DNA from: an uncultured Acidobacteriaceae bacterium
Lineage (GTDB): Bacteria > Acidobacteriota > Terriglobia > Terriglobales > Acidobacteriaceae
DNA: 64,000 nucleotides
Direction: 5' to 3'
NCBI GenBank assembly: GCA_963799175.1
Contig: CAWCWC010000004.1
Span: 192-64,191, forward strand
In this document: piece by piece, positions 16,205 to 34,372 of the stretch
Layout: each line of letters begins with the position of its first letter
Position numbering within the stretch: the stretch's first letter is position 1
The notes under the pieces: model-generated
Told to the model about the DNA's origin: nothing
The model's database searches: none
The model's input: the letters and a program-made list of their open reading frames with translations, nothing else
Made by a program: the position numbers and the translations under genes

Positions 16205-17149
16205 ATGCCCGAGCTTCCCGAGGTCGAAACCATCGCCGCAGGCGTTCACGCCCGAGTCCAGGGCCGGCGCATCGTCCGTGTCTGGACCAGCGGAAAGCCA
16301 CAGACCTTCAAGTCGCCGGAGTCCGAGATCGCCGCCGCCCTCACCGGCGCACGCATCCAATCCGTCCGCCGCGTCGGCAAGACCATCGTCATGACCGTTG
16401 ACCGACGAGAAAGTTTGGGTGCCCCATCCGTTGCAGTCTCATCGCAAAGGATGGGTTCAGATAAAACCTCCACCGAACTCCTCATCCACCTCGGCATGAC
16501 CGGACGCCTGCTCGTCTCCGCGCGAGAAGTTCCCCTAGCGCCCCACACCCACGCCGTCCTCACCCTTAGCGGTGCGCCAGGGGAAACAGCCACCCGCGAG
16601 GTCCGCTTCGTCGATCCACGCCGCTTCGGCCGCATCTCTCTTCACCAACCCGAATCTGGGTGCCCCATTCATGCGGCTTCATCGCATGAGTGGGATGTGA
16701 CCTCCGCAAAGTCAACAACTTACTCCGGCCCCGGCCGCGAGCCCCTCACCATCTCGCTCGACGACTTCATCGCCCTCTTCCACCCTCGCCGCACCCCCAT
16801 CAAGGCCGCTCTGCTCAATCAATCCCTCCTCCACGGCATCGGCAACATCTACGCCGACGAGTCGCTCTTCCGCGCCTCCATCCGTCCCACCCGCCAAGCC
16901 GCCCGCCTCACCCACGCCGAGCTCGCTCTTCTGCGCACATCCATAACCAAAGTCCTTCGCCACGCCATCCGCCTCGGTGGCTCGTCCGTCTCCGACTACG
17001 TCGACGCCGACGGCGCGCGCGGCTTCTTCCAGCTTCGCCACTGCGTCTACCGGCGCACTGGCTTGCCCTGCACCGTCTGCGCGACACCCATCCGCCGCAT
17101 CACCCTCGCCAGCCGCAGCACCCACTTCTGCCCCCGTTGTCAGAGGTGA
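16205..17149 (+). CDS. mutM: formamidopyrimidine-DNA glycosylase carrying two in-frame palindromic insertions
   Basis: N-terminal PELPEVE, HLGMTG, DPRRFG, GIGNIYADE and a C4 zinc finger (CTVC...CPRCQ). Confidence 0.95.
   Translation: MPELPEVETIAAGVHARVQGRRIVRVWTSGKPQTFKSPESEIAAALTGARIQSVRRVGKTIVMTVDRRESLGAPSVAVSSQRMGSDKTSTELLIHLGMTGRLLVSAREVPLAPHTHAVLTLSGAPGETATREVRFVDPRRFGRISLHQPESGCPIHAASSHEWDVTSAKSTTYSGPGREPLTISLDDFIALFHPRRTPIKAALLNQSLLHGIGNIYADESLFRASIRPTRQAARLTHAELALLRTSITKVLRHAIRLGGSSVSDYVDADGARGFFQLRHCVYRRTGLPCTVCATPIRRITLASRSTHFCPRCQR
16417..16455 (+). repeat. REP-like family B palindrome inside mutM
   Basis: GGGTGC-CCCATCCGTTGC-AGTCTCATC-GCAAAGGATGGG hairpin, read as GAPSVAVSSQRMG. 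Confidence 0.75.
16658..16694 (+). repeat. REP-like family B palindrome inside mutM
   Basis: GGGTGC-CCCATTCATGCG-GCTTCAT-CGCATGAGTGGG hairpin, read as GCPIHAASSHEW. Confidence 0.8.
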
Positions 17150-28149: not shown

Positions 28150-29520
28150 ATGTCATCCAATTCCGCCAGCGTAGCCGAGGGCAGCATCACCGCCTCCGCC
28201 CCGCAGAGCACCAACATCCGTTGGTTTGTCTGCGCCCTGCTCTTCGCCGCAACCACCATCAACTACATGGACCGCTCGGTCTTCTCCTTCATCGAGCCCC
28301 TCCTCCATGGCGCGTCGTTTATGGGCTGGAACTTCCATGCCGACCAGTTCCATCAGTCGGTCTTCGACAACAACTACGGAAACGTCATCATCTGGTTCCA
28401 GATCGCGTACGGCGTCGCCTTCCTCCTCGCCGGCCGCATCATCGACAAGCTGGGCACCAAGGTCGGTTATGCATGCGCCATTGGGATCTGGGCGCTTTCC
28501 TCGATGAGTCACTCGCTGGTCGCATCGGTCGCCGGCTTCTGCATCGCCCGCGTATTCCTCGGGATCGGCGAGTCGGGCAACTTCCCTGCCGCCATCAAGG
28601 CCACCACGGAGTGGTTCCCCGTCAAAGAGCGCGGCAAAGCCGTTGGTATCTTCAACTCCGGCACCTGTGCATCCTTCTTCCTGGCACCCAAACTCATCGG
28701 ATTCGCAACCGGCCATTACGGATGGCGCGCCGCCTTCATTGCCACCGGCTCCCTCGGCATGATCTGGCTGATCGTCTGGCTCTGCTTTCCCTACAATCGC
28801 CTTCTCCGCGGCTCGACACAGACCCAGATCAATATCGATGCCGACTTAGCATCACAGACAGCCTACGGCGGCAATATTCCCCTCTCGGTCCTGCTAAAGC
28901 GGCCGGGTACCTACGCCTTTGCCATCGGTAAGGGACTAACCGACGGTGTTTGGTGGTTTTACCTCTTCTATCTGCCGCAAATCCTCAACCGCAATTATGG
29001 TTTAGACCTCAAGCACGCCTACTGGTTCATCGTCACCGTCTATGTTGTGTCCACAGTCGGCTCCATCTTTGGCGGATCGCTCTCCGGATGGCTCATGGGA
29101 CATGGCTACTCGGTCAATAACGGACGCAAGTTCGCCATGCTGTTCATGGCCGTCCTGGTCCTTCCGCTCATGCTTGTCCCGCACATGGGAGCGATCTTTC
29201 CTGCCAACCCATGGCCCGCCACTTTGATCATTGCTCTCGCCGCCGCGGCCCATCAGGGTTGGTCTGCCAACCTCTTCTCTACCCCCGGCGATATGTTTCC
29301 CTCCACAGCCGTCTCCACCATCGTCGGCATCGGCGGCGCTTTCGGCGCGGTTGGCGGAGCTTGCTTTACCTGGATCGTCAAACGCAACCTGTCGCTGCAC
29401 CCGTTGCTTGTATTCTCCGTCGCTGCGTTGGCCTATGTCCTCGCCCTCGCCATCTTCCAGCTCCTGGTGCCCCGTCTCGGTGCCAAGACGCATACCTCCG
29501 GCGAACCCCAGACAGCCTGA
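28150..29520 (+). CDS. MFS transporter, ExuT/hexuronate (ACS) type
   Basis: RWFVCALLFAATTINYMDRS, GIGESGNFPAAIK, EWFPVKERG, WWFYLFYLP and AAHQGWSAN. Confidence 0.88.
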   Translation: MSSNSASVAEGSITASAPQSTNIRWFVCALLFAATTINYMDRSVFSFIEPLLHGASFMGWNFHADQFHQSVFDNNYGNVIIWFQIAYGVAFLLAGRIIDKLGTKVGYACAIGIWALSSMSHSLVASVAGFCIARVFLGIGESGNFPAAIKATTEWFPVKERGKAVGIFNSGTCASFFLAPKLIGFATGHYGWRAAFIATGSLGMIWLIVWLCFPYNRLLRGSTQTQINIDADLASQTAYGGNIPLSVLLKRPGTYAFAIGKGLTDGVWWFYLFYLPQILNRNYGLDLKHAYWFIVTVYVVSTVGSIFGGSLSGWLMGHGYSVNNGRKFAMLFMAVLVLPLMLVPHMGAIFPANPWPATLIIALAAAAHQGWSANLFSTPGDMFPSTAVSTIVGIGGAFGAVGGACFTWIVKRNLSLHPLLVFSVAALAYVLALAIFQLLVPRLGAKTHTSGEPQTA

Positions 29521-29623
29521 GGCTGTACTTGCTTGTTACCGCATCTCCTTTGAGATGTGGGTTCCCCCTGCGCCCGCATGACCCGTCCTGTCTCGCCACC
29601 TGCTAAACTGGCCTATCAAGCCG

Positions 29624-32319
29624 ATGTCAGAAACCACTAAAAAGTTCTACCTCACCACGCCGATCTACTACGTCAACGCCCGCCCGCACATCGGCCACGC
29701 CTACACCACCATCGCCGCCGATGTCATCGCGCGACGCCACCGCCTGCTCGGCGACGACACCTTCTTTCTCACCGGCACCGACGAGCACGGACAGAAGGTG
29801 CAGCGGTCGGCAGCCGCAGCCGGTATTCCGCCGCAACAGTTTACCGACGAAGTCTCCGCCAGCTTCCGCAACCTATGGAAGCGCATGGGCCTCACCAACG
29901 ACGATTACATTCGCACCACCGAAGCCCGTCACCACTGCGGCGTCCAGCACCTCTGGCGCGAACTCGAAGCCCGAGGCGCCATCTATCTCAGCTCCTACAC
30001 CGGCCAGTACTGTGTCTCCGACGAGGCCTTCGCCGATGTTCCCGTCGGCGCGCCCTGTCCCATCTGCGGCCGCCCCACCGAGACCATCACCGAGGAGAAC
30101 TACTTCTTCCGCCTCTCCGACTACCAGCTCCCCCTCATCGACCTCATCGAATCCGGCGCCCTCCACATCCAGCCCGATACCGCCCGCAACGAAGTCCTCA
30201 GCTTCCTTCGCGGCGGATTGAAAGACCTCTCCATCTCCCGCACCACATTCGACTGGGGCATCCCCGTTCCCGGCAATCCCAAGCACGTCGTTTACGTCTG
30301 GCTGGATGCGCTCGCCAACTACATCACTGCCATCGGTTACGGCTCCGACGACCCCATAGAGCAGGCTAAGTTCGCACGCTACTGGCCCGCCGACCTCCAC
30401 CTCGTCGGCAAGGAGATCACCCGCTTCCACTGCGTCTACTGGCCTGCGATCCTGCTCGCCGCCGGACTGCCACTGCCCAAATCCATCGTCGCCAACGGCT
30501 GGCTGCTCTTTGAAGAGTCCAAGATGTCCAAGTCACGCGGCAACGTCGTCCGCACCGAGACCATCCTCGACGCCTTCGGCCCCCTCTGCCCACCAACAAA
30601 TAGCTCGGGTGCCCCATCCATGACGGGGTCTCATCCCGGCATGGGTGGGAACGTAATCCCTTCCCCTGCCGAGTCTCCAAACCTTACCCCTCCCGGTCTT
30701 TCCGGAGATAGCACCGGGCTTCAGCCCGGTGAATCAGGGGCCAATAACGATGGGGCTTTAGCCCCCGGGACAACATCTGCCGCGCCCGGTCTTTCCGGAG
30801 GGAGCAGGCTTCAGCCCCCTGAATCGACGCCCCATGTAGAAAGCTCGGGTGCCCCATCCATGACGGGGTCTCATCCCGGCATGGGTGGGAATGTAATCCC
30901 TTCCCCTGCCGAGTCTCCAAACCTTACCCCTCCCGGTCTTTCCGGAGATAGCACCGGGCTTCAGCCCGGTGAATCAGGGGCCAATAACAATGGGGCTTTA
31001 GCCCCCGGGACAACATCTGCCGCGCCCGGTCTTTCCGGAGGGAGCAGGCTTCAGCCCCCTGAATCGACGCCCCATGTAGAAAGCTCGGGTGCCCCATCCA
31101 TGACGGAGTCTCATCCCGGCATGGGTGGGAATGTAATCCCTTCCCCTGCCGAGTCTCCCATCCTTACCCCGCCCACCAAAGCCCAGCAAGACCTCTTCGC
31201 CGCCGACGTGCTCCGCTACTTCCTGCTGCGCGAGATTCCCTTCGGCCAGGACGGCACCTTCTCCTTCGACGCCCTCATCACCCGCTACAACGCCGACCTC
31301 GCCAACGGCTACGGCAACCTCGTCAGCCGCACGCTGAAATGATTCAGCAAGTATTTCGACGGAGTCAGGTATCCAGATGCCTCCAAATCTGCGGAACTCG
31401 ACCTGATGACAGCCGCAGCCTTTCGATCCGCGCTTGAACATACCGATTCGCTAGATCTCATGAACGCATTTAAATGACTGCCGAACTTCAATGCAGCTTC
31501 TTGAGGAGATATCTTCCTACATCAGCGGCACAGACAAGAACGATTTCTGACCGTGCGCCTTGGAGGCTCGTCGCAGCCGGCGAGATGACAGCTGATCGTC
31601 GGCACACCCTTTATTCAGCCGCCGAATCGATCCGCATCATCACTGCCCTGCTCTACCCCATCCTCCCCTACGCCACCGCCTCCGTCTGGCAACAGCTTGG
31701 CCTGGGAAGCATCGAACAAGCAGCACGTGACGGCAAACTAAAAGACCTGAAGTGGGGCGGCCTCAAGCCCGGCACAAAACTCGGCCCCCTCGCCCCTATA
31801 TTTCCCCGAGCAGACAAAGGACTCGCCCAAATTATGACCGATATGGAAAATCCCACCCCCACACCCGATCCCGCCGCAGCATCCTCCATCCCATCCCCCG
31901 AGGCCCTGAACGCTGTGCATCCACGTGTCCCCAGCGCCCCACCGCCCCAACTGACAACCTGCAACCTGCAACTGGCACCTCGCCCCTGATCTCCATCGAC
32001 GACTTCGCCAAGGTCGATCTCCGCGTCGCGCAGATCGTCGTCGCCGAGCGCATCCCAAAAGCCGACAAACTCCTCCGCCTCGAAGTCGATCTCGGCCCCA
32101 ACTTCCCTCGCCGCCAGATCCTCGCCGGCATCGCCGAGTACTACACCCCCGAATCCCTCATCGGCCGCAAGGTAGTCATCGTAGCCAATCTCGCCCCACG
32201 CAAGATGCGCGGCCTGGAGTCGCAGGGGATGGTCGTCGCCGCCTCGGTCGGCCCTGCCGGCGCACCTGTCCTCACCGGTTTCTTGGAGAACGTCGAACTC
32301 GGGTGCTCGCCTGAAGTAG
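29624..32319 (+). CDS. metG: methionine--tRNA ligase with a ~207-aa in-frame repeat insertion and several apparent frameshifts in the 3' half
   Basis: [29 protein letters not shown] and KMSKS. Fragments at 31474..31989 ([12 protein letters not shown]) and ~31985..32319 ([13 protein letters not shown]...ILAGIA...[15 protein letters not shown]) complete the anticodon and tRNA-binding domains. Confidence 0.93.
30602..31170 (+). repeat. 240-bp tandem repeat (about 2.4 copies) built from REP-like palindromes, in frame in metG
   Basis: Units start at 30602, 30842 and 31082 (AGCTCGGGTGCCCCATCC...). Each full unit holds one family B hairpin and three family A hairpins. Copies differ by single substitutions. 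Confidence 0.95.
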
Positions 32320-32420
32320 CCATCGGCGCACCTTAAATAGCCGTTCATCGCACCACTCTGGCCCACTAAAGTTTCGCTTTCGTTCTAACCACTTCGCGTC
32401 ACGAGGAGTCTTACAGATAT

Positions 32421-34058
32421 ATGGCTACTCCGGTTGCAGTTCCGCTGAGCGTAAGCGAGATGTCCATGACCGAGGTGGAGCGCGCTCAGGCCCTGGCCAT
32501 GCGCTACCACGCCGAGTTCGTCGACCTGAAGAACTTCAAAATCTCGCATGAGCTCTTCAAGAGCGTTCCCGTCGACATGATGTTCCGCTACAACTTCGTC
32601 CCCCTGGAGCAGCTCGAGGGCCGTCTCGCCATCGCCGTCAGCGATCCCTCCAAGCTGATGATGCTCGACGAGATCTCCGGCCTCCTCGGCCAGCGCCTGG
32701 TAACCCGCGTCGCCACCATGTCGCAGATCACCGACCTGCTCAAGAAGACCGAGCAGTCGCAGCGCGTCCTCGACGAAGCCAGCGAGGGCCTCGCCTTCGA
32801 TGTCCTCTCCGACGAGGACAATCCCGACGAGAACATCTCCATCGAGCGGCTCACCGGCGAGGACGACATCTCGCCCATCATCCGCCTGGTCGATACCACC
32901 ATCTTCACCGCGCTGGAGCGCCGCGCCTCCGACATCCACCTCGAGACCTGCGACGACTGCCTGATGGTGAAGTACCGCATCGACGGCGTGCTGCAGCAGG
33001 CCATGGCGCCCATCGCGCGCGAGCATCATCAGACCATCCTCTCCCGCATCAAGGTCATGTCCGAGCTGGACATCGCCGAGCGCCGCGTTCCCCAGGATGG
33101 CCGCTTCCGCGTGCGCTACAAGGGCCGCCTCATCGACTTTCGCGTCTCCATCATGCCCACCGTGCATGGCGAGAACGCCGTCCTCCGCGTGCTCGACAAG
33201 GAGTCCATGTCGGAGAAGTTCAAGAAGCTCTCCCTCGACGTGGTCGGTTTCGCTGCCGACGATCTGGAGCGCTTCCGCCGCTACATCAAGGAACCCTACG
33301 GCATGGTGCTGGTCACCGGCCCCACCGGCTCCGGCAAAACCACCACCCTCTACGCCGCGCTCAACGAGATCAAGTCCGAAGAAGACAAGATCATCACCAT
33401 CGAGGACCCGGTCGAGTACCAGATTCGCGGCATCACCCAGATTCCCGTCAACGAGAAAAAAGGCCTCACCTTCGCCCGCGGCCTGCGCTCCATCCTGCGC
33501 CACGACCCCGACAAGATTCTGGTCGGCGAAATCCGCGACGCCGAAACCGCGCAGATCGCCATCAACTCCGCGCTCACCGGCCACCTCGTCTTCACCACTG
33601 TCCACGCCAACAACGTCGTCGACGTCCTCGGCCGCTTCCTCAACATGGGCGTCGAGCCATACAACTTCGTCTCCGCGCTTAACTGCATCCTCGCCCAGCG
33701 CCTGGTCCGCACGGTCTGCGAGTTCTGCGTGCGCGACGTGCACTACTCCGACGCCGAGCTGCTGGCCAGCGGCCTGGAGCCGGACGAGTGGCGCGGCTTC
33801 AACTTCCGCGAAGGCCCCGGCTGCATGGAGTGCGCGGGCACCGGCTTCCGCGGCCGCTCCGCCATCCACGAACTGCTCGAGCTGGACGACGAGATCCGCG
33901 AGATGCTCCTCGCCAAGCGGCCCGGCAGCGAGATTCGCAAGAAGGCGCGCGACAAGGGCATGAACTTCCTGCGCGACTCCGCCATCCAGCGCGTCCGCCT
34001 CGGCATCACCACACTCAAAGAGATCAATAAAGTCACCTTCATCGAGGCAAATAGGTAA
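32421..34058 (+). CDS. pilB: type IV pilus / T2SS assembly ATPase (PilB/GspE)
   Basis: ASDIHLE, LDIAERRVPQDG, GPTGSGKTTT, TIEDPVE, LRHDPD, GEIRD, TGHLV and a tetracysteine motif. Confidence 0.92.
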   Translation: MATPVAVPLSVSEMSMTEVERAQALAMRYHAEFVDLKNFKISHELFKSVPVDMMFRYNFVPLEQLEGRLAIAVSDPSKLMMLDEISGLLGQRLVTRVATMSQITDLLKKTEQSQRVLDEASEGLAFDVLSDEDNPDENISIERLTGEDDISPIIRLVDTTIFTALERRASDIHLETCDDCLMVKYRIDGVLQQAMAPIAREHHQTILSRIKVMSELDIAERRVPQDGRFRVRYKGRLIDFRVSIMPTVHGENAVLRVLDKESMSEKFKKLSLDVVGFAADDLERFRRYIKEPYGMVLVTGPTGSGKTTTLYAALNEIKSEEDKIITIEDPVEYQIRGITQIPVNEKKGLTFARGLRSILRHDPDKILVGEIRDAETAQIAINSALTGHLVFTTVHANNVVDVLGRFLNMGVEPYNFVSALNCILAQRLVRTVCEFCVRDVHYSDAELLASGLEPDEWRGFNFREGPGCMECAGTGFRGRSAIHELLELDDEIREMLLAKRPGSEIRKKARDKGMNFLRDSAIQRVRLGITTLKEINKVTFIEANR

Positions 34059-34101: not shown

Positions 34102-34155
34102 AAACGAGCTTTCGTAAATCGATTAAGACAGCCAGGTTTTGGAATCATGTTAGCC

Positions 34156-34372
34156 AGGTTTTGAAAGGGCGGAAATTTAGCCCGGCAGCTAGGTTTTGAA
34201 GGGGAAGACTACAGTCCCGCACCCAGGTTTTGATAGGGCGGAAATTTAGCCCGGCAGCTAGGTTTTAAAGGGGAAGACTACAGTCCCGCACCCAGGTTTT
34301 GATAGGGCGGGACTTTAGTCCCGCCGAAAGCCCAGCATCCATCACGGGGCTTTAGCCCCTGAGGGAATGTCG
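34156..34372 (+). repeat. tandem array of family A half-elements (69-bp period) ending in a complete element
   Basis: AGGTTTT-starting units at 34156, 34191, 34225, 34260 and 34294 alternate 35/34 bp. The last unit has GGCGGGACTTTAGTCCCGCC...GGGGCTTTAGCCCC-TGAGGGAATGTC. Confidence 0.9.

Follow-up and report, generated by a model that had tools for sequence, protein, structure and literature searches.

The metG gene of an uncultured soil Acidobacteriaceae bacterium, which encodes methionyl-tRNA synthetase (MetRS), carries an in-frame insert of 203 residues (by alignment of the site), beginning 16 residues past the KMSKS motif. Most of the insert is encoded by palindromes of the repetitive extragenic palindromic (REP) type, arranged as a 240-nt unit that is repeated ~2.4 times in tandem. 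The gene lies in a 64,000-nt stretch of DNA that we refer to as “the window” (contig C4, positions 192–64191, of genome G000). The genome assembly comprises 3.8 Mb in 25 contigs, with 61% G+C and an estimated completeness of ~85%. We consider it very probable that the following description holds as a whole: this metG is a single, functional gene; the loop after KMSKS is a landing place for REPs throughout the genus; a block of REPs was duplicated within it; the insert is translated as a disordered, near-neutral segment; and the lesions in the 3' part of the gene are assembly errors. Coordinates refer to the window unless a contig is named, and all metG features are on the + strand.

The tandem array in metG

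The metG open reading frame (ORF) starts at 29624, and its translation contains the PHIGHAY (residues 21–27) and KMSKS (residues 300–304; 30521–30535) motifs. The frame-1 part of the gene (29624–31339 in the ORF list) spans 572 codons and encodes the catalytic domain, which matches PF09334, followed by the insert and the first helices of the anticodon-binding domain. With HIGH, KMSKS, PF09334 and a PF01588 C-terminal domain, the last of these read in frame 2, the product has the features of a bacterial-type MetRS. The closest genome, G017, has 82% identity to it over residues 1–320. No second metG or other MetRS-like gene was found in the ~85% complete assembly, and an Rfam search over 29500–32500 gave no match.

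Tandem Repeats Finder reports a 240-nt unit over 30602–31174, with 2.4 copies, 98% matches, 0% indels, and a score of 1104. The copies lie at 30602–30841, 30842–31081, and 31082–31174. Two substitutions, at 30652 and 30749, separate the first and second copies; in the partial third copy, differences are found at 30627 and close to the end. In the wide sense, the insert corresponds to residues 320–523 (30581–31192), a segment without counterpart in solved MetRS structures. Over 30581–31201, there are no stop codons in the MetRS frame, as compared to 10 and 9 in the other forward frames, and 4, 7, and 3 on the reverse strand. The insert consists of 17% Pro, 16% Gly, and 16% Ser (49% together), with almost no aromatic residues. 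Approximately 25 residues at both ends of the insert (PLCPP... at one of them) form a linker that is common to relatives and is not derived from REPs. Folding of the whole unit is unremarkable (z = −1.83); the single hairpins are clear on their own.

We examined whether the 9-nt direct repeat GCCCACCAA (30588 and 31171) could be a target-site duplication, and rejected this because the spacing of 583 nt is not divisible by three, the two copies are in different codon phases, and both encode a PPT that is also present in relatives.

Repeat elements that make up the unit

Each unit combines three repeat elements (B, A1, and A2) with two short, unique stretches (x and y) in a mosaic. The family B REP, identified by the copies of its head motif, occupies unit positions 6–50 (30607–30651, 30847–30891, and 31087–31131). 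It is a 45-nt hairpin with an outer stem of 10 bp, an inner stem of 6 bp, and a fold energy of −27.2 kcal/mol. Next is spacer x (30652–30706, 30892–30946, and, in the last copy, 31132–31174), which is unique in the genome: blastn of the unit against the whole genome gave no matches over unit positions 51–103. The same spacer follows B in three relatives, P0002, P0003, and P0005. Element A1 (unit positions 106–170; 30707–30771 and 30947–31011) is a two-hairpin composite, GATAG-CACCGGGCTTCAGCCCGGTG-spacer-GGGGCTTTAGCCCC, with perfect 9-bp arms. Its CACCGGGCT/AGCCCGGTG hairpin is at 30712–30731 and 30952–30971, and its GGGGCTTTAGCCCC hairpin is at 30752–30765 and 30992–31005. Intergenic copies elsewhere in the genome, e.g., C2:141654 and C1:100137, have the same architecture. 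Element A2 (unit positions 194–224; 30795–30825 and 31035–31065) is a GGAGGGAGCAGGGGGCTTCAGCCCCC-type hairpin that lacks the GGG of the 5' arm, with intact copies at C7:458583 and C7:440345. It folds at −3.9 kcal/mol here, versus −17.5 kcal/mol in P0002 and P0003. The GGG deletion is in-frame and common to both A2 copies, and is therefore older than the duplication. Lastly, the short piece y, just before B, resembles x in having no further copy in the genome.

The elements are dispersed well beyond metG. Those of the GGGCTTYAGCCC type are mostly intergenic, and in the window their core lies between genes at 34347, 41616, and 46820. The family B head motif, GGGTGCCCCATYC, has 73 exact and 166–168 looser copies in the genome; family B copies start with GGGTGCCCCATCC and end with GGGTGGGA. 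The count of 166 heads is the highest of 41 genomes compared, which include 24 genus relatives and 16 sister-family genomes (the unpublished genome G009 is one row in these counts, and none of the claims hinges on it), and a reversed control gave ~0. The head is present in 22 of the 24 genus relatives, versus only one of the 16 sister-family genomes. The genome also has nine Y1 transposase genes (Y1_Tnp, PF01797). Four of these IS200-type or REP-associated tyrosine transposase (RAYT)-type genes, at C2:16260–16544, C10:366–695, C7:126105–126281, and C8:329705–329935, have inverted family B copies on their flanks, as in the classical REP-RAYT arrangement.

A preliminary description of this DNA, made from the sequence alone, had proposed a stop-free, in-frame insert at 30581–31201, made of a 240-bp unit repeated about 2.4 times, with copies that differ by single substitutions, with family B hairpins and with family A hairpins that match elements between genes in the window. 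All of this agrees with the present analysis, to the coordinates of the individual hairpins, and the dispersal of family B is as expected for the mobile palindromes that it had invoked. Its view of the insert as built of REP-like palindromes applies to most of the segment, and not to the linker residues at the ends.

The same site in relatives and solved structures

In phmmer searches of the PDB, the solved MetRS 4dlp (Brucella) and 4qrd align to residues 1–319 of the metG product and resume at residue 523/524. We also aligned 113 MetRS, most of which stand for clusters at 50% identity; in 101 of them, a single residue separates the positions equivalent to G319 and D528. MetRS from the sister family are 642–682 aa long, with the G and AD of this motif adjacent, whereas those of genus relatives are 769–948 aa. 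Every genus relative has a variable insert at the site, and neither the sister family nor the solved structures have one. The insert ranges from 16 to 111 residues in 110 close homologues, versus 203 residues here, and more than half of 111 close homologues (counting this gene) have recognizable translations of REP-type elements in the insert.

The relatives provide several intermediate forms. Orthologues with an empty site are found in the sister family and among the PDB chains, and short forms lacking REPs are found within the genus: G017 has a 22-residue linker, and P0020 and P0022, with cores that are 90–92% identical, have a 16-residue form. P0005 has half of A1 followed by B-x; P0002 has another element, then A2 and B-x; P0003 has exactly one block, A1-A2-y-B-x; and the genome studied here has B-x followed by two A1-A2-y-B-x blocks. 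In the homologues with these alleles, which come from independent assemblies of short reads as well as long reads, the ORF is intact and full-length; a gene can therefore be complete with in-frame REP modules at this loop. The single block in P0003 supports a scenario in which insertion came first and block duplication later. By these alignments, the site after KMSKS is a lineage-specific insertion hot spot. The adjacency of G and AD in typical MetRS, the permissive nature of the loop, and the duplication of the block after its insertion had all been anticipated in the preliminary description.

There are at least four further variable insert sites in MetRS of the genus (loci L033–L042): one follows NEVLSFLRG, one follows YWPAFLLA, one is inside the anticodon domain, and one is in the linker that precedes the tRNA-binding domain. 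In G023, B-type peptides (GAPSMAQSHRDMGGN) occur at two of these further sites.

Selection on the core and the insert

The N-terminal core of the metG product has a ratio of nonsynonymous to synonymous divergence (dN/dS) of 0.11–0.17 against three relatives. For one insert block compared to the single block of P0003, dN/dS is 0.87, with dS of 0.22. These substitution patterns indicate purifying selection on the core and near-neutral evolution of the insert.

An AlphaFold2 model from a diverse alignment has a mean predicted local distance difference test score (pLDDT) of 77, with scores of 93–99 in the core and <50 for residues 334–492. In this model, the insert is coil, with pLDDT of 28–44 and no secondary structure over residues 325–515, between flanking helices at residues 311–321 and 519–537. 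The modelled core superposes on solved MetRS at 1.6–2.5 Å. An initial model built from 50 close homologues had a mean pLDDT of 52.9 and was discarded. The predicted structure is consistent with a permissive junction between two helices that accommodates a disordered loop, with the fold of the enzyme kept; together with its composition, this is the Pro/Gly/Ser-rich and probably disordered segment that had been expected.

A different view of the same data is that the insert has been co-opted, i.e., that it is held by selection, for example as a spacer or interaction segment, and is not a neutral passenger. Consistent with this, four diverged alleles have retained the B-x module, which has a synonymous divergence of 0.22 versus 0.41 for the core, and the B hairpin of the module is still strong (−27 kcal/mol). 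Moreover, the B subfamily concerned, defined by the inner stem GGGGTCTCATCCC, occurs in this genome only in metG and, also in frame, in dnaX. Recent insertion explains the low dS equally well, however, and the insert dN/dS of 0.87, the lack of REPs at this site in close relatives (core identity of 90–92%), the unrelated elements found in others, and the decay of the hairpins (a deletion in A2 here, altered stems in P0005) all argue against co-option, which we regard as very unlikely. There is likewise only a small chance that existing hairpins attract more REPs, that strains swap modules, that slippage amplifies them, and that the resulting long, disordered segment is put to use. If the segment were in use, it could serve as a MetRS tether, or the REP-encoded peptide shared by MetRS, IleRS, ValRS, and DnaX (GAPSM...GMGG) could support a common interaction.

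Copy number of the array

Part of the array is found outside this assembly. Logan contigs from three public runs, belonging to two studies (soil and bioreactor metagenomes), match 30653–30866, 30707–30866, and 30712–30866 with zero differences; the source sample may be among these runs. The exact contigs include the A2 deletion and cross the x-to-A1 and y-to-B joints. An array with these joints must have at least 1.4 copies. Exact-pattern scans of metagenome contigs for the x-to-A1 joint and for B-x gave no matches. Contigs from a metatranscriptome run, X18, match only conserved parts of metG, with mismatches.

In a soil-metagenome contig from run X1 (30594/30707), a 37-nt piece links the left flank of the insert straight to A1, as in the alleles of P0003 and P0006. 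Loop alleles thus vary among co-occurring strains.

The insert could also be genuine and its copy number an assembly artefact, the true allele having 1.4 copies or another number. The public contigs break within the repeated B head, with none crossing the whole array; two of three DNA runs have no depth at 30916–31009; and strains with other alleles co-occur, such as the one represented by the X1 contig. Nevertheless, we consider an artefact of this kind quite unlikely. The copies differ at 30652 and 30749, as expected of separate copies, and the pattern of homopolymer errors in the assembly (see below) points to long reads, which would easily cover 573 nt. In addition, the x-A1 and y-B joints of the exact contigs set the minimum at 1.4 copies.

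Lesions in the 3' part of metG

The preliminary description overlooked that metG is broken downstream of the insert. The first frame ends at an in-frame TGA (31340–31342), and the remainder of the gene is spread over other frames, with at least three frame changes. By homology, the reading continues in frame 1 to a second TGA at 31475, then in frame 3 (31474–31940), then in frame 2 (31941–32300), and then in another frame for the last codons. The frame-3 part encodes the end of the anticodon-binding domain and the linker (60–72% identity by tblastn; dN/dS of 0.18–0.29). The frame-2 part encodes the linker and the C-terminal tRNA-binding domain (83–88% identity by tblastn; dN/dS of 0.07).

There are four lesion sites in this region, all at short runs of A, T, C, or G, where a one-base change would give the reading of the relatives. 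The first (31337–31344) is an AAA run followed by the TGA at 31340–31342 and TT; it reads K*FSKYFDG where relatives have KM(I/L)SKYF, and an extra A and one T less would restore their reading. At the second (31472–31477), an AAA run (31472–31474) is followed by TGA, and the reading shifts from frame 1 to frame 3. At the third (31937–31948), which has two CCCC runs, it shifts from frame 3 to frame 2. The fourth (32301–32319) has a GGG run (32301–32303); with one G removed, the protein would end in ELGARLK followed by TAG (32317–32319), and MetRS of relatives likewise end in GARLK. A contig from run X1 that covers 31499–31758 is 4 nt shorter than the window sequence there.

Other genes of this genome are broken in the same way. 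Relative to intact orthologues, the LeuRS gene (C20:166244–168795) has four frame changes and the ValRS gene (C8:234077–237034) has two, and there are further broken genes. Many single-base indel errors in the assembly probably account for its completeness of 85%. Runs of at least five identical bases are ~26% rarer than in relatives' loci, although this is a weak hint only. A cell cannot survive the loss of three essential synthetases. Because the LeuRS and ValRS genes are broken like metG, and the cell cannot have lost all three, we read the metG lesions as assembly errors: the stop codon and frame changes are most likely homopolymer errors of a long-read assembly and not marks of a pseudogene.

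The competing explanation is that this metG is a decaying pseudogene that accumulated REPs under relaxed selection, with a working MetRS gene encoded in the unassembled 15% of the genome. It draws on the TGA codons at 31340 and 31475, on the three or more frame changes before the natural stop, and on the genome being only 85% complete. We consider it very unlikely, since dN/dS is low in all core segments, including the shifted ones (0.07–0.29), each lesion amounts to a one-base change at a short homopolymer, and the same kind of breakage affects LeuRS (four shifts) and ValRS (two). Furthermore, intact full-length relatives have the same elements at the same site, and the assembly yielded no other MetRS-like gene.

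Several observations count against a functional gene with a translated, transposed, and duplicated insert. As assembled, metG cannot yield a full-length protein, and the density of lesions, five within ~1 kb, is above that of the first 1.7 kb of the gene. The protein collection searched contained no intact MetRS from the same species. None of the contigs in public runs spans the whole array, such that 2.4 rather than 1.4 copies is the figure of this assembly only. The 73 listed family B copies lack the GTAG or CGTC tag of the described REP superfamilies, and no mobilizing enzyme could be linked to the A elements.

A possible mechanism

We propose that, in this genus, selfish palindromic repeats came to settle in the surface junction after KMSKS, between the helices at residues 311–321 and 519–537. 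The loop would have gained a family B REP, probably moved by the Y1/RAYT-type transposases of the genome, as well as two GGGCTTYAGCCC-type hairpin elements. Of all insertions, only those that were in-frame, stop-free, and in a tolerant place would have survived. The A1-A2-y-B-x block would then have been copied in head-to-tail order, with replication slippage or unequal recombination as the probable cause, giving B-x followed by two blocks. The 240-nt period is divisible by three, and the reading frame was therefore kept on duplication. No unique order of events could be reconstructed for the leading partial copy. The insert is presumably retained in mRNA and translated as a Pro/Gly/Ser-rich, disordered loop of ~200 residues that the enzyme tolerates and that would evolve near-neutrally, with the hairpins decaying after insertion.

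REPs in other genes and between genes

Of the 168 family B copies in the genome, 48 are in frames that stay open for 100 codons or more on each side, versus 52% of random positions, and most of them read as GAPSM or GAPF. The hosts confirmed by Pfam are IleRS-type, ValRS, LeuC-type, DnaX, RecG, UvrD-like, and FtsK proteins. Specifically, in-frame copies are found in the genes for an IleRS-type protein (C11:67799–70045), ValRS (C8:235144–236673), a LeuC-type protein of the aconitase family (C15:161087–162715), RecG (C24:56364–58772), a UvrD-like helicase (C15:390897–394898), and FtsK (C2:109711–112380). The dnaX gene (C6:183193–185232) has two tandem in-frame B copies, both of the rare subfamily with the metG inner stem. 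In the window, two family B heads at 16418 and 16659 lie in one open frame and are read in different frames.

Tandem amplification of composite REP blocks also happens between genes. Following an ORF that ends at 34058, an intergenic array at 34154–34324 consists of a family-A-related hairpin composite with a 69-nt unit, 2.4 copies, and 95% matches; it is the intergenic counterpart of the metG array. On contig C15, at ~267.6–268.0 kb, there are five head-to-tail units of 82 nt that combine a B hairpin with a GTCATTCCG...-type element.

Comparison to known systems

The closest parallel is with Rickettsia palindromic elements (RPEs), for which 44 insertions in R. conorii genes have been described (Ogata et al. 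2000, as summarized in PMC10969869 and PMC3733652). As far as those summaries go, the likeness is one of behavior: dispersed palindromes have entered many unrelated, functional genes without disturbing the frame, and are read as extra surface peptide. The scale is also similar, since the 44 insertions in R. conorii genes compare to 48 family B copies located in long open frames of this genome. The elements studied here are from another phylum, and we liken them to RPEs by behavior, not as members of a sequence family. RPEs are single insertions of ~150 bp, as summarized there, whereas three hairpin families are nested in one loop of metG, with a block tandemly amplified to ~200 residues.

Di Nocera, De Gregorio and Rocco (2013; PMC3733652) described intragenic REPs with GTAG or CGTC tags in several phyla. 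In the parts of that work consulted, these REPs are single, paired, or grouped, are often in replication and repair genes, encode 20–30 residues, and are in some cases associated with Y1 (RAYT) transposases; Acidobacterial tyrosine transposases form a distinct group. Short REP hairpins within known genes are a feature shared with metG. By contrast, family B lacks the GTAG/CGTC tag, and the metG insert is ~10 times longer and is a tandem array. The consulted parts of PMC3733652 contain no mention of MetRS or of Acidobacterial intragenic REPs.

Like the systems of REP doublets forming hairpins (REPIN) and RAYTs of Pseudomonas and enterobacteria (PMC3116915, PMC3337134), family B consists of high-copy, imperfect palindromes, with Y1 genes that have inverted flanking copies. 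There are two differences: (i) nine Y1 genes are present here, instead of a single one for each family; (ii) a large share of the copies is inside genes. A literature search of incomplete coverage found no paper on Acidobacterial MetRS or on an intragenic block of this kind that is amplified in tandem. The insert had been put forward as a little-described route to coding novelty, and this holds for Acidobacteria only, since the parts of PMC3733652 and PMC10969869 consulted already describe events of this kind. The kind of event is known; this example stands out through its size, the nesting of three families, and the tandem amplification.

Significance

REP-derived peptides, combined with homopolymer errors, distort gene calls in metagenome-assembled genomes based on long reads: the sole metG of this genome is split and is open to being misread as a pseudogene. 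The series of alleles found at one site (16 residues, partial blocks, one block, and 2.4 blocks) makes it possible to compare the steps by which a non-coding repeat becomes protein, and provides a ready test system for the tolerance of disordered inserts near the KMSKS loop. The metG insert shows how far selfish DNA can stretch an essential enzyme, with ~200 new residues making up a quarter of a protein whose core is strongly conserved by selection.

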